Sequence record: NC_054935.2 | DNA from: Escherichia phage YUEEL01 | Strand: one strand, 5' to 3' | Length of the DNA stretch: 64,000 nucleotides | Shown: one piece after another, positions 2,604 through 17,981 of the stretch | How the letters are laid out: every line of letters starts with the position of its first letter | Position numbering within the stretch: the stretch's first letter is position 1 | Translations under genes and position numbers: made by a program | The notes under the pieces: model-generated | What the model was told of the DNA's origin: nothing | Seen by the model: the letters and a program-made list of their open reading frames with translations, nothing else | The model's database searches: none

Positions 2604-3825
<1,222 letters not shown>

Positions 3826-3889
3826 TGGCTTTGCACCATGAAACTTGGACTATTATTAATTGGCTCGAAGAAAATTATGTGAGGTAAAT

Positions 3890-4165
3890 ATGTTTCCGAC
3901 TTACTCTAAAATCGTAGAAGTAGTGTTTAGCCAAATTATCGCTAATAATATGTTTGAAAAACTTGATAACGCAGCTGAGCTTCGAATCCACGCTCAAGTG
4001 ACTCATGTATTGAACACTTTGCTTCCAGACCAGGTGGATTCTATTGCCATTACGTTGTATCCAGGTTCCGCGCATATCATTGTTGTATTCGGTCTTGATG
4101 CTGAGCTAGTTATCAAAGGCGACATTCGCTTTGAATCTCAAACTGCGGAATTCAAAGCGATTTAA
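3890..4165 (+). CDS. hypothetical protein (91 aa)
   Basis: ORF track 3860..4165; ATG at 3890 preceded by GAGG SD chosen as start. Confidence 0.5.
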   Translation: MFPTYSKIVEVVFSQIIANNMFEKLDNAAELRIHAQVTHVLNTLLPDQVDSIAITLYPGSAHIIVVFGLDAELVIKGDIRFESQTAEFKAI

Positions 4166-4167
4166 TG

Positions 4168-4197
4168 GTTTACTTTACGGTAGAGTTGTGATATTAT
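4168..4197 (+). promoter_or_regulatory. T4-type early promoter
   Basis: GTTTAC 4168-4173, TATTAT 4192-4197 with upstream TG; precedes ORF 4228. Confidence 0.55.
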
Positions 4198-4227
4198 AGC
4201 TCTATCAAAACAAATGAGGAAATTAAA

Positions 4228-4755
4228 ATGAGCGAATGGTTTGAAGAAGATAAGGTTTATCGCTTTAAAACTGGGTATAAAGATATTTTTAATGAAACTT
4301 GCGGGGCTAATAAACGAATTGCCCAGTTTATTGGGGAAAATTCATTTAAAGTAAAAATAGATCCTGCGAAAAATGTTATTAGCATTAAACGCGAAATTGA
4401 TGACTGCTGGTATAAAGCTGTTGATGTAATGGGCGAATCCTATAAAGTTAGCCCGTTATTTTCAATTGCTTATATGTTAGAATATTCTTTTTTCGAAGAA
4501 GTTCAAAAAGATGATTCTGCCAGTAAATTTGAAATTAAAACTGATAAAGAAATTAAGTGGAAAGTAGTAGGTATTACTGGTTGTATGTTTTATATCTATG
4601 CTCAAACTGATACGAAGGAAGAAGCTAAAAATAAAGCTCTAGAATATCTTGAAGAGTATGAAGAAGGTCCGGTAATGATTACTCAAGATGCTGAATTAGT
4701 TTCTGTCAAATTAGTTAAAAACGTTGAAAGTAAGGAGCTGGGATCAACATGCTAA
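4228..4755 (+). CDS. hypothetical protein (175 aa)
   Basis: ATG with GAGGA SD; preceded by early-promoter-like element. Confidence 0.6.
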   Translation: MSEWFEEDKVYRFKTGYKDIFNETCGANKRIAQFIGENSFKVKIDPAKNVISIKREIDDCWYKAVDVMGESYKVSPLFSIAYMLEYSFFEEVQKDDSASKFEIKTDKEIKWKVVGITGCMFYIYAQTDTKEEAKNKALEYLEEYEEGPVMITQDAELVSVKLVKNVESKELGSTC

Positions 4756-4985
4756 GTGAAAAACCAATTACTGTTAAAGAATTCCAAGAAAAAGTTAAAC
4801 TATTTGCACAGGAATTAGTAAATAAGGTTTCTGAACGATTTCCTGAAACGTCGGTTCGTGTTATTACCGAAACTCCTCGTTCAGTATTAGTAATTGTGAA
4901 TCCAGGTGATGGCGATCAAATATCGCATCTTAAACTGGATTTTGATGGATTAGTTGAAGCACAAAGGGTGTATGGCGTACTATGA
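4749..4985 (+). CDS. hypothetical protein (78 aa)
   Basis: ORF overlapping neighbours by a few bp in cd-pseT block. Confidence 0.5.
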   Translation: MLSEKPITVKEFQEKVKLFAQELVNKVSERFPETSVRVITETPRSVLVIVNPGDGDQISHLKLDFDGLVEAQRVYGVL

Positions 4986-5320
4986 TGAATTTAACTGATA
5001 TAATTGATAATTGTCTTGAAAATGATACTGGCGATCATAGAGCGCTTGACTCTGAAACAGCACAGTTCATTAGAATAACTTTAATGAATGACACTCTAGT
5101 GAATAGTATTCATCCTTCTGTGTATGATGCTATTATTGTGACGAAGTATCCAGTTGAGCTTCACAAAAAGATGGTTGGCGCAATTTTTATTGATAAGAAA
5201 AACCGCTTTAAAGATGGGCAGAATATAATTAGTTCTGTTATTAAAAGTATAACTAAACTTCGTCACGAAATTTATCGTGTTGAAACTGCTAAATCTGCTT
5301 ATCTGGTGATTATGAAATGA
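4982..5320 (+). CDS. hypothetical protein (112 aa)
   Basis: ORF in cd-pseT block, 4-bp overlap with cd. Confidence 0.55.
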   Translation: MMNLTDIIDNCLENDTGDHRALDSETAQFIRITLMNDTLVNSIHPSVYDAIIVTKYPVELHKKMVGAIFIDKKNRFKDGQNIISSVIKSITKLRHEIYRVETAKSAYLVIMK

Positions 5321-5898
5321 AAGCGAGTACAGTACTTCAAATTGCATATTTAGTATCGCAGGAATCAAAATGTTGCTCCTGGAAGGTAGGAGCAGTAATT
5401 GAAAAGAATGGACGTATTATTTCTACTGGGTATAATGGTTCACCTGCAGGGGGTGTGAACTGTTGTGATTATGCTGCTGAGCAAGGTTGGTTGTTGAATA
5501 AGCCTAAACATACTATCATTCAAGGTCATAAGCCTGAATGCGTATCATTTGGTTCAACTGATCGTTTTGTCTTGGCGAAAGAACATCGTAGTGCTCACTC
5601 GGAATGGTCATCTAAAAATGAAATTCATGCTGAACTAAATGCGATTTTGTTTGCTGCACGAAATGGCTCTTCTATTGAAGGTGCTACTATGTATGTAACA
5701 CTTTCTCCTTGTCCAGATTGTGCAAAAGCGATAGCTCAATCTGGTATTAAAAAGCTGGTTTATTGCGAAACATATGATAAAAATAAACCTGGCTGGGATG
5801 ATATTCTGCGAAATGCAGGTATTGAAGTGTTTAATGTTCCTAAGAAAAACTTGAATAAGTTAAACTGGGAAAATATCAACGAATTCTGTGGTGAATAA
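5317..5898 (+). CDS. cd: dCMP deaminase
   Basis: 193 aa; cytidine/deoxycytidylate deaminase zinc motifs HAELNA and PCPDCA; length and position match T4 cd. Confidence 0.92.
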   Translation: MKASTVLQIAYLVSQESKCCSWKVGAVIEKNGRIISTGYNGSPAGGVNCCDYAAEQGWLLNKPKHTIIQGHKPECVSFGSTDRFVLAKEHRSAHSEWSSKNEIHAELNAILFAARNGSSIEGATMYVTLSPCPDCAKAIAQSGIKKLVYCETYDKNKPGWDDILRNAGIEVFNVPKKNLNKLNWENINEFCGE

Positions 5899-10560: not shown

Positions 10561-10829
10561 TGTTTGTTGTTCACACTATTTATGAAAATGAAGGTAATAC
10601 TACACGTGATTACGGTCACGTAAATCAATTTTTTAGATGCAATCCAGAATTCCGAGCTCAAAAAGACGAACGAATTTTTAAAAAATGTGTAGAGCAAGGT
10701 TTCATTTACGTCAAGCACTGGATGCAAGGAAATAAAGTTAGAACCACGTACCACAGGTCTTTGACTGAGCTTAATGATGAATTGATTTATAATAGAGCTG
10801 TAAACCAAACTCTAAAGGATGAACAATGA
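10560..10829 (+). CDS. hypothetical protein (89 aa)
   Basis: ATG ORF directly upstream of DNA ligase, overlapping stop/start. Confidence 0.55.
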   Translation: MFVVHTIYENEGNTTRDYGHVNQFFRCNPEFRAQKDERIFKKCVEQGFIYVKHWMQGNKVRTTYHRSLTELNDELIYNRAVNQTLKDEQ

Positions 10830-12289
10830 TTCTTAAAATTCTGAACGAAATAGCATCTATTGGTTCAACTAAGCAGAAGCAAGCAATTCTTGAAAAGAAT
10901 AAAGATAATGAATTGCTTAAACGAGTATATCGTCTGACTTATTCTCGTGGGTTACAGTATTATATCAAGAAATGGCCTAAACCGGGTATTGCTACCCAGA
11001 GTTTTGGAATGTTGACTCTTACCGATATGCTTGACTTCATTGAATTCACGTTAGCTACTCGGAAATTGACTGGAAATGCGGCAATTGAGGAATTAACTGG
11101 ATATATTACTGACGGTAAAAAAGATGATGTTGAAGTTTTGCGTCGGGTGATGATGCGAGACCTTGAATGCGGTGCTTCAGTATCTATTGCAAACAAAGTT
11201 TGGCCAGGTTTAATTCCTGAACAACCTCAAATGCTTGCAAGTTCTTATGATGAAAAAGGCATTAATAAGAATATCAAATTTCCAGCCTTTGCCCAGTTAA
11301 AAGCTGATGGAGCTCGGTGTTTTGCTGAAGTTAGAGGTGATGAATTAGATGATGTTCGTCTTTTATCACGAGCTGGTAATGAATATCTAGGATTAGATCT
11401 TCTTAAGGAAGAGTTAATCAAAATGACTGCAGAAGCTCGCCAGATTCATCCAGAAGGTGTGTTAATTGATGGCGAATTGGTATACCATGAGCAAGTTGAA
11501 AAGGAGCCAGAAGGCCTAGATTTTCTTTTTGATGCTTATCCTGAAATTAGTAAAGCTAAAGAATTCGCCGAAGTAGCTGAATCACGTACTGCATCTAATG
11601 GCATCGCCAATAAATCTTTAAAGGGAACCATTTCTGAAAAAGAAGCTCAATGCATGAAGTTTCAGGTCTGGGATTATGTCCCGTTGGTAGAAATATACGG
11701 TCTTCCTGCATTTCGTTTGAAATATGATGTACGTTTTTCTAAACTAGAACAAATGACATCAGGTTATGATAAAGTAATTTTAATTGAAAACCAGGTAGTA
11801 AATAACCTAGATGAAGCTAAGGTAATTTATAAAAAGTATATTGACCAAGGTCTTGAAGGTATTATTCTCAAAAATACCGATGGATTGTGGGAAAATGCTC
11901 GTTCAAAAAATCTCTATAAATTTAAAGAAGTAATTGATGTTGATTTAAAAATTGTAGGAATTTATCCTCACCGTAAAGACCCTACTAAAGCGGGTGGATT
12001 TATTCTTGAATCAGAGTGTGGAAAAATTAAGGTAAATGCTGGTTCAGGCTTAAAAGATAAAGCCGGTGTAAAATCGCATGAACTTGACCGTACTCGCATT
12101 ATGGAAAACCAAAATTATTATATTGGAAAAATTCTAGAGTGCGAATGCAACGGTTGGTTAAAATCTGATGGCCGCACTGATTACGTTAAATTATTTCTTC
12201 CGATTGTGATTCGTTTACGTGAAGATAAAACTAAAGCTAATACATTCGAGGATGTATTTGGTGATTTTCATGAGGTAACTGGTTTATGA
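10826..12289 (+). CDS. 30: ATP-dependent DNA ligase
   Basis: 487 aa MILKILNEIASIGSTKQKQAILEKNKDNELLKRVYRL... matches T4 DNA ligase; adenylation lysine context AQLKADGARC. Confidence 0.95.
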   Translation: MILKILNEIASIGSTKQKQAILEKNKDNELLKRVYRLTYSRGLQYYIKKWPKPGIATQSFGMLTLTDMLDFIEFTLATRKLTGNAAIEELTGYITDGKKDDVEVLRRVMMRDLECGASVSIANKVWPGLIPEQPQMLASSYDEKGINKNIKFPAFAQLKADGARCFAEVRGDELDDVRLLSRAGNEYLGLDLLKEELIKMTAEARQIHPEGVLIDGELVYHEQVEKEPEGLDFLFDAYPEISKAKEFAEVAESRTASNGIANKSLKGTISEKEAQCMKFQVWDYVPLVEIYGLPAFRLKYDVRFSKLEQMTSGYDKVILIENQVVNNLDEAKVIYKKYIDQGLEGIILKNTDGLWENARSKNLYKFKEVIDVDLKIVGIYPHRKDPTKAGGFILESECGKIKVNAGSGLKDKAGVKSHELDRTRIMENQNYYIGKILECECNGWLKSDGRTDYVKLFLPIVIRLREDKTKANTFEDVFGDFHEVTGL

Positions 12290-12474
12290 AAGCTTACTTA
12301 GAAACAATTGTCGTGGCTCAAAAAGAAGGTGGAGATGTTTCTACTTCTGTATCACAAGTCATTCTCGAATTTGTAGATGCATACGCTTATAATAAATTTA
12401 CAGAAACATTTGATGCCTATGAAAAAGGACCAAAGTTTGAAATATATCGTACTCTCTTACCACTAGATTACTAA
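12286..12474 (+). CDS. hypothetical protein (62 aa)
   Basis: Small ORF overlapping ligase stop, followed by hairpin terminator. Confidence 0.5.
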   Translation: MKAYLETIVVAQKEGGDVSTSVSQVILEFVDAYAYNKFTETFDAYEKGPKFEIYRTLLPLDY

Positions 12475-12492
12475 AGGCCTTCGGGCCTTTAA
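12473..12492 (+). terminator. intrinsic terminator upstream of alt late promoter
   Basis: AAAGGCC-TTCG-GGCCTTT hairpin followed by AATTTT. Confidence 0.65.
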
Positions 12493-12495
12493 TTT

Positions 12496-12503
12496 TATAA
12501 ATA
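12496..12503 (+). promoter_or_regulatory. late promoter TATAAATA for alt
   Basis: Exact TATAAATA 21 nt upstream of alt ATG, just after a terminator hairpin; alt is a late-expressed packaged protein in T4. Confidence 0.65.
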
Positions 12504-12526
12504 GAATAAACACTAGAGAGGCTATG

Positions 12527-14575
12527 ATGGAACTTATTACAGAATTATTTGACGAAGATACTACTCTTCCGATTACAAACTTAAATCCAAAGAAGAAAAT
12601 ACCGCAAATTTTTTCAGTTCATGTTGATGATGCAATTGAACAACCAGGCTTTCGTTTATGTACCTATACATCTGGAGGTGATACTAATCGCGATTTAAAA
12701 ATGGGCGATAAAATGATGCATATTGTTCCTTTTACATTAACTGCTAAAGGTTCAATTGCTAAATTAAAAGGTCTTGGTCCAAGCCCAATTAATTATATCA
12801 ATTCAGTTTTTACTGTTGCAATGCAAACAATGCGTCAGTATAAAATTGATGCTTGTATGCTTCGTATTCTTAAGTCTAAAACCGCTGGTCAAGCTCGACA
12901 AATTCAAGTTATTGCTGATAGACTTATCCGTAGTCGTTCAGGTGGCAGATACGTCCTTCTTAAGGAACTCTGGGATTATGATAAAAAGTATGCATATATT
13001 CTTATACATCGCAAAAATGTATCACTAGAAGACATTCCAGGAGTTCCGGAAATTAGTACCGAGCTCTTTACTAAAGTTGAATCGAAGGTCGGTGATGTTT
13101 ATATCAATAAAGATACCGGAGCTCAAGTAACCAAAAATGAGGCAATTGCAGCATCTATTGCACAAGAAAATGATAAACGTTCTGACCAAGCTGTAATCGT
13201 TAAAGTTAAAATTTCCCGTAGAGCAATTGCACAAAGTCAGTCATTGGAATCTTCTAGATTTGAAACACCGATGTTTCAAAAATTTGAGGCTTCAGCGGCA
13301 GAATTAAATAAACCAGCGGACGCGCCTTTAATTTCTGATTCTAATGAATTAACGGTAATTTCTACTTCAGGATTTGCACTAGAGAATGCTCTTAGCAGTG
13401 TTACAGCTGGGATGGCATTCAGAGAAGCTTCTATAATTCCTGAAGATAAAGAATCCATTATTAATGCAGAAATAAAAAATAAAGCTTTAGAAAAATTACG
13501 AAAAGAATCTATTACTTCAATAAAAACTTTAGAAACTATTGCTTCTATCGTCGATGATACTTTAGAAAAATATAAAGGTGCTTGGTTTGAAAGAAATATT
13601 AACAAACATTCGCATTTAAACCAAGATGCTGCAAATGAGTTAGTACAAAATTCTTGGAATGCAATAAAAACAAAGATTATTCGAAGAGAATTACGTGGAT
13701 ATGCTCTTACAGCTGGATGGTCATTACATCCTATAGTCGAAAATAAAGATTCATCTAAATACACACCAGCACAAAAACGCGGAATTCGTGAATACGTAGG
13801 TTCAGGATATGTAGACATAAATAATGCTCTTTTGGGATTATATAATCCAGATGAGCGTACAAGTATTTTGACAGCATCTGACATAGAAAAAGCTATTGAT
13901 AATTTAGATTCAGCCTTTAAAAATGGTGAACGATTACCAAAAGGTATTACTTTGTATCGTTCACAACGAATGTTACCTTCAATATACGAAGCAATGGTAA
14001 AAAATCGAGTTTTTTATTTTAGAAATTTTGTATCAACATCATTATATCCAAACATTTTTGGTACTTGGATGACTGATTCAGCTGTTGGTGTTTTACCAGA
14101 TGAAAAGCGTCTAAACATTTCTATCGATAAAAATGATGAAGGGCTTGTTAATTCTAGCGATAATTTAGTCGGAATTGGATGGGTTATTACTGGGGCTGAT
14201 AAAGTCAATGTTGTTTTACCCGGTGGAAGTTTAGCGCCTTCAAATGAAATGGAAGTCATTTTGCCACGTGGATTAATGGTCAAAGTTAATAAAATAACTG
14301 ATGCATCTTACAATGATGGAACAGTCAAAACTAACAACAAGCTTATTCAAGCTGAAGTTATGACCACCGAAGAACTCACCGAATCAGTAATTTATGACGG
14401 TGACCGTTTAATGGAAACCGGCGAAGTAGTTACAATGACAGGTGATATAGAAGATAGAGTTGACTTTGCATCATTTGTTTCATCAAATGTTAAACAAAAA
14501 GTAGAATCATCTCTTGGAATTATTGCGTCTTGCATAGATATTACAAACATGCCTTACAAGTTCGTTCAAGGATAA
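12527..14575 (+). CDS. alt: Alt ADP-ribosyltransferase (packaged, modifies host RNAP)
   Basis: 682 aa from second ATG; MELITELFDEDTTLPITNLNPKKKIPQIF... matches T4 Alt; ART-like R / STS / E motifs (LYRSQ, FVSTSL, EVILPRG); late promoter upstream. Confidence 0.93.
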   Translation: MELITELFDEDTTLPITNLNPKKKIPQIFSVHVDDAIEQPGFRLCTYTSGGDTNRDLKMGDKMMHIVPFTLTAKGSIAKLKGLGPSPINYINSVFTVAMQTMRQYKIDACMLRILKSKTAGQARQIQVIADRLIRSRSGGRYVLLKELWDYDKKYAYILIHRKNVSLEDIPGVPEISTELFTKVESKVGDVYINKDTGAQVTKNEAIAASIAQENDKRSDQAVIVKVKISRRAIAQSQSLESSRFETPMFQKFEASAAELNKPADAPLISDSNELTVISTSGFALENALSSVTAGMAFREASIIPEDKESIINAEIKNKALEKLRKESITSIKTLETIASIVDDTLEKYKGAWFERNINKHSHLNQDAANELVQNSWNAIKTKIIRRELRGYALTAGWSLHPIVENKDSSKYTPAQKRGIREYVGSGYVDINNALLGLYNPDERTSILTASDIEKAIDNLDSAFKNGERLPKGITLYRSQRMLPSIYEAMVKNRVFYFRNFVSTSLYPNIFGTWMTDSAVGVLPDEKRLNISIDKNDEGLVNSSDNLVGIGWVITGADKVNVVLPGGSLAPSNEMEVILPRGLMVKVNKITDASYNDGTVKTNNKLIQAEVMTTEELTESVIYDGDRLMETGEVVTMTGDIEDRVDFASFVSSNVKQKVESSLGIIASCIDITNMPYKFVQG

Positions 14576-14578
14576 ATC

Positions 14579-16636
14579 ATGGAACTTATTACAGAATTAT
14601 TTGACGGCGCTTCGGCGCCGGTTGTTAACTTAAATCCTAAGCATAAAATACCTCAAATTTTTGCTATTCAAGCCGGCGAAGAAAGCGTGCTTCCTGGATT
14701 TAGATTTTGTACATACACCTCTGGAGGTGATACAAATAAAAACGTTAAGCCGGGCGATAAAATGATGCATATCGTAATGATAGGTGTCAACGAGAAATTA
14801 TCACTGGTTAAACTTAGAAACTTGGGTGGAAATCCAATTGGCGTCATTAACGCTGTTTTTGATACTGCTCTTCAAACAATGAAACAGTATAAAATTGATG
14901 CATGCTTATTCCGCGTACTAAAGAGTAAAACAAATGGAGCTGCTCGTCAAATGCAAGTTATTGCTGACCGTTTAGTACGTACTAAAGGAGCAGGTCGATA
15001 TGTTCTTTTAAAGGAAATCTGGGATTATGATAAAAAGTACGCATATATTATGGTTTATCGTAAAAATGCCAATTTAGAAGACATTCCAGGTGTACCTCCT
15101 ATTTCAACTGAGTTATTCACAAAAGTTGAATCAAAGGTTGGTGATGTTTATGTAGATGTTAAAACAGGTAATGCTGTTCCTAAAGCTGTTGCTGTTGCTG
15201 CTTCTATTGCTTTAGAAAATGATAAGCGCACGGACCAAGCTGTTATTCAGAAAACTAAAATTAGTCGTCGATTAGCAGCACAAGCTCAATATTCTACTGT
15301 TGATGCTTCACTTCAGGGTGATAGCTTCGCTGCTAAGAAATATCAAGAGTTTGAATCTAAAGTTCCGGTGTATAAAGCAGAAGGACCAATGAACTCTGGC
15401 GTTATTCAAATTGGTTCAAACTTCAGCAAAGGAGCTATAGGCGGTATGAGAAGCGCTTCTCGTTTTAAATCTAGTGATTATGAACTCGAAAGCTTCCGAA
15501 ATCATATTGCATTAGCCCATGCACGTTTACGTGATCCATCTATCAAGTTACAGAGCGATATAACATATCAAGGTTCTCAAGAATATTTAAAGAATAAAGA
15601 ATTCTTTGATTATAAGACTGATAAAATTTTAAGCGATCTTGCTGATATTAATATTTCTAATAGCTTTGATGTTATTAAGAAAATTATCAATGATTTGGTT
15701 AAAGGTTCTAAAGCTACGCCAGATGAAAAGACAGCTATTATTCAATTTGTCATGAATGGCATTTATAAATTGATTAATGAATCTGCTGCTCAGGCATATG
15801 AATACGCAAGCACTGAAGTAACTCCAAAAGGATTAACTCAAGCTGAATCTGATGTAATTGAAGATTATTGTGCAGATTCATATGTTGAAATGAACTCGTT
15901 CCTTTTGGGTAAACCAGATTCTACCCGTGAAGAATATATGGAACGAGCTATTAAACATATTGAGACGCTTGATTCTGCATTCGCTAAAGGTTCAGTTCTT
16001 CCTCCAGGAACTACACTTTACCGTGGACAAGAAGTTACCTTTAAAACTTTGCGTCATAACATTGAAAATAAAATGTTCTATTTCAAGAACTTCGTATCCA
16101 CATCGCTTAAACCAAATATCTTCGGTGAGCATGGTAAAAACTATATGGCTCTAGATGATTCCGGCGCAGTATTTTCTGGTGAAGGAGAAGGTTCCGTTGA
16201 TGCAGAAGATTTGATGCATATGGGTAGTCATTCTACATATGCTAATGAAGATGCTGAAACTAGCGTGGGTATGGTAATTAAAGGAGCTGAGCGAATCAAA
16301 GTTATCGTTCCGGGTCATTTATCAGGATTTCCGTCAGAAGCTGAAGTTATTCTACCACGTGGAATTTTACTGAAGATTAATAAAGTAAGTACTTACTTTA
16401 TGAAAGAAACTGCTTATAACAAGTATCTAATCGAAGGTACAATCGTTCCTCCTTCTGAACAATTAGAAGAATCAGTATATGATGGCGACCATCTAATGGA
16501 AACTGGTGAAGTTCGTCCAATGGCTGGATTTAATCAATTCCTTGTAGAAGAATCAAAAGAAGAGGAAAGCGAAGTTTCTCAAATCTTAGCTTCTTTGGTT
16601 AACATCAACGGAATGTCTAAAAAGTTCAAAATGTAG
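14579..16636 (+). CDS. Alt-like ADP-ribosyltransferase paralog
   Basis: 685 aa; N-terminal ~230 aa and C-terminal ART-like region (LYRGQ, FVSTSL, EVILPRG) clearly homologous to the upstream Alt, central region divergent; 3-bp spacer from alt. Confidence 0.85.
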   Translation: MELITELFDGASAPVVNLNPKHKIPQIFAIQAGEESVLPGFRFCTYTSGGDTNKNVKPGDKMMHIVMIGVNEKLSLVKLRNLGGNPIGVINAVFDTALQTMKQYKIDACLFRVLKSKTNGAARQMQVIADRLVRTKGAGRYVLLKEIWDYDKKYAYIMVYRKNANLEDIPGVPPISTELFTKVESKVGDVYVDVKTGNAVPKAVAVAASIALENDKRTDQAVIQKTKISRRLAAQAQYSTVDASLQGDSFAAKKYQEFESKVPVYKAEGPMNSGVIQIGSNFSKGAIGGMRSASRFKSSDYELESFRNHIALAHARLRDPSIKLQSDITYQGSQEYLKNKEFFDYKTDKILSDLADINISNSFDVIKKIINDLVKGSKATPDEKTAIIQFVMNGIYKLINESAAQAYEYASTEVTPKGLTQAESDVIEDYCADSYVEMNSFLLGKPDSTREEYMERAIKHIETLDSAFAKGSVLPPGTTLYRGQEVTFKTLRHNIENKMFYFKNFVSTSLKPNIFGEHGKNYMALDDSGAVFSGEGEGSVDAEDLMHMGSHSTYANEDAETSVGMVIKGAERIKVIVPGHLSGFPSEAEVILPRGILLKINKVSTYFMKETAYNKYLIEGTIVPPSEQLEESVYDGDHLMETGEVRPMAGFNQFLVEESKEEESEVSQILASLVNINGMSKKFKM

Positions 16637-16665
16637 TTTACAAGTCCCTCGTGTTGTGTTATAGT
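16636..16665 (+). promoter_or_regulatory. T4-type early promoter (second copy of the 1172 cassette)
   Basis: GTTTAC 16636-16641, TATAGT 16660-16665; near-identical to 1172-1201. Confidence 0.6.
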
Positions 16666-16690
16666 AATCTTACTGACATAACATGAGGAA
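16636..16690 (+). repeat. copy B of ~55-bp early promoter/leader cassette
   Basis: GTTTACAAGTCCCTCGTGTTGTGTTATAGTAATCTTACTGACATAACATGAGGA. Confidence 0.8.
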
Positions 16691-16696
16691 CACAAA

Positions 16697-16987
16697 ATGA
16701 AATCTTCTTTACGCTTTTTAGGTCAAGAACTTGTAGTTGAAGGCGTTATTCCTGCTGATAACGCTTTTAATGAAGCAGTTTATGATGAATTTATCAAAAT
16801 TTTTGGAACAGATAAAAAGTTCGGAATTTTTCCTTCTGAAAATTTTTCAAAGCCAGAACAGACTGAAAGTATTTTCCAAGGTGTAGTAACAGGTAAATTT
16901 GAGTCAGAAGCTCCGGTAAAAATTGAAGTTTATATTGAAGACAGTTTAGTTGCTTCAGTTTCTGCTTTCATTTCATTCCGTAAATAA
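16697..16987 (+). CDS. hypothetical protein (96 aa)
   Basis: ATG ORF with GAGGA SD behind duplicated early promoter cassette; followed by bidirectional terminator. Confidence 0.55.
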   Translation: MKSSLRFLGQELVVEGVIPADNAFNEAVYDEFIKIFGTDKKFGIFPSENFSKPEQTESIFQGVVTGKFESEAPVKIEVYIEDSLVASVSAFISFRK

Positions 16988-16991
16988 AAAT

Positions 16992-17013
16992 ATGGGGACC
17001 GAAAGGTCCCCAT
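16992..17013. terminator. bidirectional terminator between convergent ORF 16697 (+) and gene 54 (-)
   Basis: ATGGGGACC-GAAA-GGTCCCCAT hairpin flanked by A/T runs on both sides. Confidence 0.7.
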
Positions 17014-17015
17014 TG

Positions 17016-17981
17016 TTATATTGCTCCTAATATTTTACTCTGCGAATTGACAATTCCTGTCATAGTATTAATATTTGAAATGCTTCCTGCAGTTCCCCCT
17101 AATCTACTAAGTCGTGAAAGCGAATTAGATAGTCCAGTAACACCTCCACTATTTCCGAGAACGCTTTGAATACCATTTATAGTAGCAGATTCAAGCCATT
17201 CAAGGGCAGCTTGTCTATCAACTGCTCCAGCCTGCATCACTCTATACGCAAAAGTAACATCAAATGTAGTTATTTGGTTATCTCCATCATATGATAACTC
17301 AGGAGCGCTTACGGACACTGGAATGCATCCAGTGAACATCACCGCAGTATGTGGTAATCCATTGCGAGAATGAAGATTAACCTGAATATCTGCCTCGACA
17401 TCTTGCGGCAAAGCACGCAATCCAGTTACTGGGTCTTGAACAGCGTTAACCCAGTCTTGCATTGCACGATAGTTACAAGCTTCTGAATCCATTCTGAATG
17501 AAATAACCAAAGGGTCTAATTCTCTCCCAGTTATACGAATATTAGGAGAATTATAGTTCCAGTCAGTTTCATAGGATAATCTATTCTCTGGCATTTTTAC
17601 AGAGTATATCATCAATCCAGATGAGTTATATGCCATGTTAAAGAAGTCAATTAAATATGTACCAACTGTAAATGAGCCTAATAAACTTTGAACTGTACGT
17701 TGACTCATGGCACCAATAAGATATTTACTAACCCCTGATTTTCTTATCAGTTTTTGTGTGCCAGCTGTAATTAGCGTAGTAATTCCCTGATTAATATCGC
17801 CTTGAGTTAATCCTAACCAATCTGAATTTAGGCCCAAGTTATTATAAGAAAAGTTGCTAATTGAACTTATCAACGAAGAGCTTTTAGTTGATGGAGTTGT
17901 AGCAAAAACACAGCTGAACATATTATTACGTTGGAAATCTGCGTTTATTGCTTGATTATTAAATTCCTCTAAAGAATACAT
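17016..17981 (-). CDS. 54: baseplate tail-tube initiator gp54
   Basis: 321 aa MYSLEEFNNQAINADFQRNNMFS...; length and synteny match T4 gp54. Confidence 0.9.
   Translation of the reverse strand: MYSLEEFNNQAINADFQRNNMFSCVFATTPSTKSSSLISSISNFSYNNLGLNSDWLGLTQGDINQGITTLITAGTQKLIRKSGVSKYLIGAMSQRTVQSLLGSFTVGTYLIDFFNMAYNSSGLMIYSVKMPENRLSYETDWNYNSPNIRITGRELDPLVISFRMDSEACNYRAMQDWVNAVQDPVTGLRALPQDVEADIQVNLHSRNGLPHTAVMFTGCIPVSVSAPELSYDGDNQITTFDVTFAYRVMQAGAVDRQAALEWLESATINGIQSVLGNSGGVTGLSNSLSRLSRLGGTAGSISNINTMTGIVNSQSKILGAI

Follow-up and report, generated by a model that had tools for sequence, protein, structure and literature searches.

The 64,000-nucleotide stretch of the Escherichia phage YUEEL01 genome analyzed here (NC_054935.2, one strand; hereafter the window) carries two large adjacent genes of the type of alt in phage T4, which encodes an ADP-ribosyltransferase (ART). 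The first, alt (open reading frame 1 [ORF1], product Alt1), corresponds to the T4 gene, and the second, alt2 (ORF2, product Alt2), is the main subject of this study. The two ORFs are separated by 3 bp (TAA-ATC-ATG), and their coordinates and their lengths of 682 and 685 aa (Table 1) match those given in an original prediction made from the sequence letters.

Architecture and catalytic residues of Alt1 and Alt2

ORF1 is the ortholog of T4 Alt, with 672 of 682 residues identical (99%), whereas ORF2 shares 41% identity with T4 Alt. The pairwise alignment suggested by the original prediction likewise gave 41% identity between ORF1 and ORF2 (BLASTP, E=1e-157), a similarity that, judged by this score, is far above chance. 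Both proteins matched the PHROG Alt family phrog_802 from end to end (ORF1, 4.6e-262 over aa 1-681; ORF2, 3.8e-256 over aa 1-685), and both exceeded the Pfam gathering cut-off of 23.4 bits for PF03496 ADPrib_exo_Tox (ORF1, E=3e-36, 125 bits; ORF2, E=6e-20, 71.9 bits). By these profile matches, both ORFs are members of the T4 Alt family, with its PF26846 plus PF03496 architecture, in agreement with their earlier designation as Alt-type ARTs.

The segment pattern of the alignment was as the prediction described it. In Alt1 numbering, residues 1-238 are 65.6% identical (the conserved N terminus of ~230 aa), the central helical region (residues 239-405) is 16.7% identical, the ART domain (residues 406-620) is 33% identical, and the C-terminal tail (residues 621-682) is 37% identical; the ART-like motifs LYR[SG]Q, FYF[RK]NFVSTSL, and EVILPRG are present. 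The claim that residues ~240-430 are unrelated held at the level of sequence, and comparison of the two central regions found no profile-profile similarity (hhalign probability, 1.7%), a value at which sequence cannot show homology between them. Divergence is not limited to this region, however; the ART domain contains a second strongly divergent stretch, which separates its STS and ExE motifs (Alt1 ~512-545; Alt2 ~516-556). The AlphaFold2 (AF2) models of the two proteins, with predicted local distance difference test scores (pLDDT) of 74 for ORF2 and 71 for ORF1, have a four-part layout in common: an alpha/beta N-domain (~15-215), ~9-10 helices (~220-470), an ART beta-core, and a disordered C-tail. 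The central helices, ~9-10 in each protein, follow one another in similar order in Alt1 and Alt2, and their structural equivalence is an impression from the models. Recent concerted evolution of the N termini was ruled out. The Alt2 N-domain is 62-65% identical to the Alts of other genera and 66% identical to Alt1, and being about equally close to both, it points to constraint and not to recent copying.

The original prediction had staked itself on ORF2 keeping the Arg/Ser-Thr-Ser/Glu triad, and the triad is kept. The catalytic positions (Table 1) were read from family alignments that cover several genera, cited as A2 and A3, and an Alt-family profile was built on A2, with Alt1 included. When this profile was aligned to ARTs in the PDB, its Arg column coincided with the catalytic Arg of C3-like and iota-like toxins, and its ExE columns coincided with the QxE of C3 and the ExE of CPILE-a; the profile also matched Certhrax and Vis. 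A structural match links the catalytic domain to solved mono-ADP-ribosyltransferases of the C3/VIP2-type R-S-E class. When the two sequences were searched against PDB chains, no solved Alt structure was recovered, and the sole match was a marginal one to CdtA. In the loop that resembles the ADP-ribosylating turn-turn (ARTT) loop, the residue at -3 of the first ExE Glu is Phe in Alt2 (GFPSEAE), Pro in Alt1, and Ile in the Alt of T6 type described below, and in the profile-to-C3 alignment this residue aligns with the ARTT Tyr of C3. We consider it highly probable that Alt2 is a functional ART, and its E-x-E motif suggests specificity for arginine.

In T4, Alt is a prohead core protein present at ~40 copies per head that is ejected into the host with the DNA (PMC9026906), and gp21 cuts it at ITE-6 and LTE-619, as mapped by mass spectrometry (PMC5694885). 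Both gp21 motifs, ITE-6 and an LxE ~60 aa from the C terminus, occur at aligned positions in Alt1 and Alt2. The L629-E-E631 of Alt2 aligns with the mapped LTE-619 site, E631 is invariant in the family, and the tail that begins there is predicted to be disordered (pLDDT <50 for residues 629-666). With moderate to high confidence, Alt2 would thus be both packaged and injected.

Homologs of the Alt N-domain (~230 aa) carry the precomputed Pfam assignment PF26846. Among 1.84 billion representative proteins the domain formed only 69 clusters, nearly all of them 600-712 aa long with a C-terminal ART. We considered that it might serve generally for delivery, in fusion with other effectors, and this was not supported, since almost all of the 69 clusters are Alt-sized and carry the ART. 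Three distant relatives of the N-domain, P0183 (485 aa), P0184 (541 aa), and P0185 (221 aa), have no Pfam ART match; they could be fragments or the sole cases of an Alt N-domain joined to something other than an ART. A Pfam scan of the isolated N-domains and central regions (E<=10) returned nothing meaningful (YpM, 0.12; CesA, 0.022; both below cut-offs). No acetyltransferase family matched either N-domain even at this threshold, and the Alt proteins are therefore not filed as GCN5-related N-acetyltransferases (GNATs). A weaker possibility is that the conserved N-domain may be a GNAT-fold module with a ligand-binding or enzymatic role of its own and not a passive packaging handle.

Table 1. 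Features of the alt-alt2 locus (nucleotide positions in the window; residue numbers where stated)
Feature	Position	Strand	Remarks
DNA ligase gene 30	10826-12289		From gene order of the window
alt.1	12286-12474		62 aa
Intrinsic-terminator-like hairpin after alt.1	12472..12491	+	Terminator scan: 8-bp stem, GC-rich, T-run
T4-type late promoter TATAAATA for the alt-alt2 unit (predicted)	12496..12503	+	Direct reading
Shine-Dalgarno GAGAGG of alt	12516..12521	+	Direct reading
alt (ORF1, Alt1, T4-type)	12527-14575	+	682 aa
Alt1 layout (inferred)			N-propeptide aa 1-6; alpha/beta domain ~7-238; helical central region ~239-405; ART ~406-619; C-propeptide 620-682
Alt1 catalytic Arg478 (LYR)	13958..13960	+	Invariant in A3
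Alt1 S503-T504-S505 motif	14033..14041	+	S503 and S505 invariant in A3
Alt1 E574-M-E576 (ExE) motif	14246..14254	+	E574 and E576 invariant in A3
Shine-Dalgarno AAGGA of alt2	14568..14572	+	Direct reading; 6 nt before alt2 ATG, overlaps the end of alt
alt2 (ORF2, Alt2)	14579-16636	+	685 aa
Alt2 layout (inferred)			N-propeptide aa 1-6; alpha/beta domain ~7-238; helical central region ~239-420; ART ~421-631; C-propeptide 632-685
Alt2 predicted N-propeptide MELITE	14579..14596	+	gp21 site I-T-E/L; identical to T4 Alt propeptide
A-run AATAAAAACG, one A lost in T4	14735..14744	+	DNA alignment of the window with T4
Left 9-nt microhomology CTAAAGAGT	14918..14926	+	Left end of ~1.7-kb T4 deletion
Alt2 catalytic Arg482 (LYR)	16022..16024	+	Invariant in A2; profile alignment to PDB ARTs
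Alt2 S507-T508-S509 motif	16097..16105	+	S507 and S509 invariant, T508 at least 90% conserved in A2
Alt2 E587-A-E589 (ExE) motif	16337..16345	+	E587 and E589 invariant in A2
Alt2 predicted C-propeptide (aa 632-685)	16472..16633	+	After gp21-type site L629-E-E631/S
Right 9-nt microhomology CTAAAAAGT	16617..16625	+	Right end of T4 deletion
Early-type sigma-70 promoter for alt.-3 (predicted)	16637..16665	+	GTTTACA - 17 nt - TGTTATAGT; promoter scan, direct reading
alt.-3	16697-16987		96 aa, DUF5498
Baseplate genes 54 and 48	Beyond alt.-3	Opposite to alt genes

Conservation of alt2 and its remnant in T4

The alt-alt2 pair is already known; it is annotated and common, and it is not a discovery of this study. 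ORF2 has counterparts of at least 90% protein identity in 399 phage records (~400 of the ~500 Tequatrovirus records), including T2 and T6, and in the records that name Alt2, the counterparts are 97-100% identical, 685 aa long, and identically positioned. In many Tequatrovirus genomes, RefSeq gives "Alt-like RNA polymerase ADP-ribosyltransferase" as the name of both genes, the BASEL records distinguish "ADP-ribosyltransferase Alt" from "Alt2" (bas35_0031, bas36_0031, bas43_0032, and bas37_0032 being Alt2), and the second gene is labeled alt.-2 in T6, RB5, and ime09, with the note "apparent insertion in alt.-2; also similar to alt" in the T6 record. Many records label alt2 a hypothetical protein. 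Nolan et al. (2006; PMC1524935) described alt.-1/alt.-2 as paralogous duplications of alt and reported a full-length alt duplicate in Aeromonas phage 44RR. Across the Straboviridae, the alt locus appears generally prone to duplication followed by diversification.

An intact 685-aa alt2 is present in T2, T6, RB5, G4498, and the window. Across these five, the pairwise ratio of nonsynonymous to synonymous substitution rates (dN/dS) was 0.016-0.055 at dS of 0.09-0.15, a range that leaves out the window-G4498 pair, which differs by three substitutions only. The ratio for alt2 is as low as that for alt itself. When the window was compared with T2, T6, and RB5 segment by segment, dN/dS was low, the central region included; the C-propeptide was the only varying segment, with values of up to 0.49 on three substitutions. 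By this measure, Alt2 orthologs are under strong purifying selection. The possibility that ORF2 is a pseudogene was rejected on dN/dS together with conservation.

The original prediction had left open whether T4 carries the same paralog, and our comparison shows that T4 retains only a frameshifted, deleted remnant, annotated as alt.-1 and alt.-2. The remnant aligns to the first ~350 nt (~116 codons) of ORF2, with 321 of 344 nt identical (93%), and the corresponding families phrog_23015 and phrog_15247 match ORF2 with E=2e-40 and 1e-37, compared to 1e-21 and 2e-19 for ORF1. The single A missing from the A-run produces the frameshift that divides the remnant into alt.-1 and alt.-2. Farther downstream, the T4 sequence skips from CTAAAGAGT to CTAAAAAGT and retains the last alt2 codons and the stop, followed by the alt.-3 promoter. 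A query of 111 nt across the T4 junction was contiguous in 91 of 495 matching records, and in the remaining records, it split into two halves having exactly the 9 nt of the repeat in common. This junction anatomy, together with the overlap, indicates that T4 is a deletion derivative of a phage with full-length Alt2. The T4 annotation treats alt.-1/alt.-2 as a duplication of the first part of alt, whereas the junction instead points to a deletion; the T4 remnant is therefore not a partial duplication, and T6 carries no insertion. T4 belongs to the minority of phages.

The first slot of the locus also varies. Alt of T4 type (at least 90% identity to ORF1) was found in 170 records and Alt of T6 type (60-80% identity to ORF1) in 320. 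The T6-type protein (X69894; also in T2, RB5, and Bas43) occupies the same slot as ORF1, is 698 aa long, and constitutes a third effector cassette, one that is not present in this window. Between the two types, identity is 99.6% over residues 1-238 and 92% over the C-tail but falls to 31% in the central region and 62% in the ART domain. An alt2 deletion of the T4 kind adjoins both Alt types (vB_Eco_EL, for example, combines a T6-type Alt with the remnant), which indicates that the alleles reassort. In Yersinia phage PST, the sole alt gene (3501-5561) is Alt1-like to residue ~100 and Alt2-like thereafter, a chimera that is consistent with unequal recombination between the conserved N-terminal regions of tandem paralogs and the deletion of one gene length. 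The alt locus is reshuffled by recombination and deletion, given that T4 lost Alt2 and PST fused both genes, and we propose that it combines a constant part for delivery with a variable effector part that has at least three cassettes (T4-type Alt, T6-type Alt, and Alt2). In a study of phage Bas37, T4 Alt was shown to help the phage evade Mokosh type I, with plating rescued by Alt of T4 and not by Alt of Bas37, which cannot replace it (10.1101/2025.11.20.689424). The Bas37 alt gene is 2097 nt long, the length of the T6 type, and this difference between the two Alts is direct evidence that the cassettes of the locus are not functionally equivalent.

Phages outside Tequatrovirus also have tandem or multiple alt-like genes. 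Phage 44RR has a partial alt duplicate in addition to the full-length one, RB49 has a partial copy beside alt, Citrobacter phage CF1 has two Alt-like genes, Phi1 and KFS-EC each have an Alt-like gene and a second ART gene, and one Aeromonas phage has matches in four places.

Transcription signals and neighboring genes

The alt-alt2 pair is preceded by the late promoter TATAAATA, which the original prediction had placed before the first copy. A motif search found a single plus-strand copy within 12000-17100, and the equivalent site in the T6 alt record is annotated "T6 late promoter." We found no promoter motif, and no copy of TATAAATA, in the interval between alt and alt2. One late promoter with none between the genes suggests that alt and alt2 form one late transcription unit, as read from these motifs. 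On its 5' side, the hairpin after alt.1 divides the upstream early/middle unit from the alt unit, and the G4498 record annotates a terminator at the matching position. On its 3' side, the unit is bounded by the alt.-3 promoter, which begins directly after the alt2 stop and has 10 of 12 consensus matches and an extended -10 TG.

ORF1 opens with two adjacent ATGs (12524-12529), of which the ORF lister takes the first, and the start of alt differs among records, being MELITE in T4 and MMELITE in T6 X69894 and in the BASEL records. We consider ATG 12527 the likelier start, given that GAGAGG lies 5 nt from it and 2 nt from ATG 12524, and given the published removal of six residues at ITE-6.

Between 10.8 and 19 kb, the genes of the window are arranged as in the T4 "30-alt-54" region, in the order 30, alt.1, alt, alt2, alt.-3, 54, and 48, which places the alt pair between the DNA ligase and baseplate genes. 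Over a 4.8-kb segment, the window shares 99.7% identity with Escherichia phages ES19, ES21, and 107 and 99.6% with vB_EcoM_G4498 (Tequatrovirus). The window itself belongs to a T4-like phage of this genus. The 62-aa product of alt.1 has a full-length match to the Pfam family PF24647 "Phage blade protein" (E=2e-29), and the terminator hairpin upstream of the alt late promoter begins at the alt.1 stop codon. Downstream of alt.-3 is a bidirectional terminator. T4 mutants with a C-terminal extension of Alt.-3 escape the CmdTAC defense (Vassallo et al., 2024; PMC11618068), and in one clinical-isolate comparison of the Bas37 transposon data, the alt.-3 homolog bas37_0031 was depleted (log2 fold change, -2.7; 10.1101/2025.11.20.689424). 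Minus-strand ORFs inside alt and alt2 (e.g., 13276-13884, 202 aa) were set aside as mechanical and unsupported.

Proposed role of Alt2 and comparison with known systems

We propose that Alt2 is a second packaged and injected arginine-specific ART with its own set of targets, a reading we consider fairly probable from the combined analyses. T4 Alt ADP-ribosylates Arg265 of RNA polymerase alpha, Arg84 of MazF, EF-Tu, and >20 other proteins (PMC8120803). In the proposed mechanism, which for Alt2 is modeled on T4 Alt, both proteins would be incorporated into the prohead core and trimmed by the gp21 prohead protease, at I-T-E(6) on the N-terminal side and, on the C-terminal side, at L-x-E (619 in Alt and 631 in Alt2), leaving a mature Alt2 of approximately residues 7-631. 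The trimmed proteins would be retained in the DNA-filled head, injected with the genome, and at once mono-ADP-ribosylate arginines of host proteins with NAD+ as the donor. The conserved N-domain and the termini would serve as the constant part, for packaging and delivery, and the fast-evolving central helices, the STS-ExE loop, and the ARTT-like loop would serve as the variable part, for target choice, so that Alt and Alt2 would hit different host proteins.

In C3-like and iota-like toxins, the helices that precede the core, the STS-ExE loop, and the ARTT residue set substrate choice. The elements that differ among Alt, T6-type Alt, and Alt2 are the pre-core helices, the STS-to-ExE loop, and the residue at -3 of the E-x-E motif, and this divergence in the elements of substrate choice led us to propose different targets for Alt and Alt2. 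We hold that the two have distinct targets with moderate confidence. The suggestion in the original prediction that the paralog might differ in target or in regulation thus stands as a reasonable hypothesis.

The Bas37 HIDEN-SEQ transposon library (10.1101/2025.11.20.689424, Extended Data Table 7) bears on whether alt2 matters to the phage. There, Alt (bas37_0033) had 164 of 179 TA sites hit and was classed as Non-essential, and Alt2 (bas37_0032) had 116 of 164 hit and was classed as "Intermediate," a class that could be technical (the screen's authors attribute some class differences to technical causes) or could come from harmful truncated products rather than from loss of function. In the K-12 control, mean counts were 44.5 for Alt2, 203.6 for Alt, 169.7 for the alt.-3 homolog, and 197.7 for the alt.1 homolog, and the Alt2 value is ~4.6-fold below those of Alt and both flanking genes. 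From this library, there is a hint that disrupting alt2 has a cost.

Besides the ambiguity of that class, several observations weigh against the role we propose. Alt2 insertions had no conditional effect in two of the resampling sheets of the same data set (log2 fold changes of 0.11 and 0.19). T4 and 90 other records are without Alt2, which indicates that Alt2 is dispensable in at least some settings. Our literature search found no virion proteome that lists Alt2, no functional study of Alt2, and none linking "Alt2," ADP-ribosyltransferase, and phage. The AF2 models are of moderate confidence (pLDDT of 71-74), with the most divergent ART loop at pLDDT <50, and the case for distinct targets comes solely from divergence at positions that set specificity in C3-like toxins.

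We considered that Alt2 could be packaged and active yet redundant, modifying the same host proteins as Alt (RNA polymerase alpha and others) and being kept for dosage or as a back-up against a host factor that blocks or senses Alt. The architecture, catalytic motif, and promoter common to both proteins would fit such a role, as would the loss of Alt2 from T4 and the 90 further records without obvious harm and the fact that T4 Alt itself is non-essential (PMC9026906). Redundancy is nonetheless unlikely in our assessment, given identities of 17% in the central region and 33% in the ART domain, the lack of profile similarity between the central regions, and the differences in the ARTT-like and STS-ExE loops. 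Each paralog has been kept nearly unchanged across T2, T6, RB5, and the window by purifying selection, which fits two jobs better than one, and even the more closely related Alts of T4 type and T6 type cannot stand in for each other against Mokosh.

It is less probable still that Alt2 is an active ART that is not packaged and acts late in the cell that produces the phage, where it might modify, for example, host or phage proteins as virions assemble. Late transcription would suit this, as would a literature without a direct demonstration of Alt2 packaging, but Alt2 retains the exact N-propeptide and both gp21-type motifs of the packaged Alt and keeps the Alt-specific N-domain at 66% identity, and the PST chimera, which joins residues 1 to ~100 of Alt1 to the body of Alt2 as the sole alt gene, suggests that the N termini are exchangeable. 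A mainly structural Alt2, an internal head or core protein that affects the amount of packaged DNA and whose enzymatic activity is secondary, is very unlikely; according to a review, alt- mutants package more DNA (PMC3012670), implying that Alt occupies head volume, but the catalytic residues are invariant throughout the family, distant genera included, and a filler protein would not need them. That Alt2 is a decaying duplicate or a mis-called ORF, as the pseudogene fragments of T4 and the "hypothetical protein" labels might suggest, is effectively refuted by the selection analysis, with an intact 685-aa ORF in ~400 records, dN/dS of 0.02-0.05, every catalytic and cleavage motif retained, and reduced transposon tolerance in Bas37.

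We therefore return to Alt2 as a second injected ART with targets of its own. Recent work has tied Alt to the evasion of MazF and Mokosh, and a more speculative version, in which the substrates of an injected Alt2 would possibly include components of host defense, is in our view doubtful. What is known of injected phage ARTs comes nearly all from T4, a member of the minority (91 of 495) that has a broken Alt2 remnant, whereas most of its relatives, T2 and T6 included, have two strongly conserved Alts whose presumed parts for target recognition differ greatly, and the first slot itself has two versions that can be swapped. Should the targets of Alt2 be its own, then T-even host take-over and anti-defense would use one more injected enzyme than the textbook account, and the phrase "three ARTs of T4" would under-describe what most T-even phages deploy within seconds of the onset of infection. 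The alt2 gene might then account for part of the difference between T2/T6 and T4 in sensitivity to host defenses. Beyond that proposal, the value of the present work lies in clarifying the direction of the loss in T4, in describing a locus of constant and variable cassettes, and in the conservation of Alt2 in most T-even phages.

Among known systems, the closest is T4 Alt (UniProt P12726, NAD+--arginine ADP-ribosyltransferase), which ORF2 matches in length, order of domains, propeptide, cleavage motifs, R-S-E residues, late unit, and location between genes 30 and 54; ORF2 differs from it in sequence (41% identity overall and 17% in the central region) and in its ARTT-like and STS-ExE loops. 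The Alt2 of the BASEL phages and the alt.-2 of T6, RB5, and ime09 are the same gene as ORF2, and the copy in the window is one more allele. T4 ModA and ModB are, like Alt, phage R-S-E ARTs that act on host transcription and translation proteins, but they are ~200 aa long, expressed early, not packaged, and without the N-terminal and helical regions of Alt. C3, VIP2/iota/CPILE-a/C2-I, Vis, and Certhrax are secreted bacterial R-S-E mono-ART toxins with other delivery domains, unlike the Alt proteins, which have a phage-specific N-domain and gp21-cleaved propeptides for delivery by the virion.

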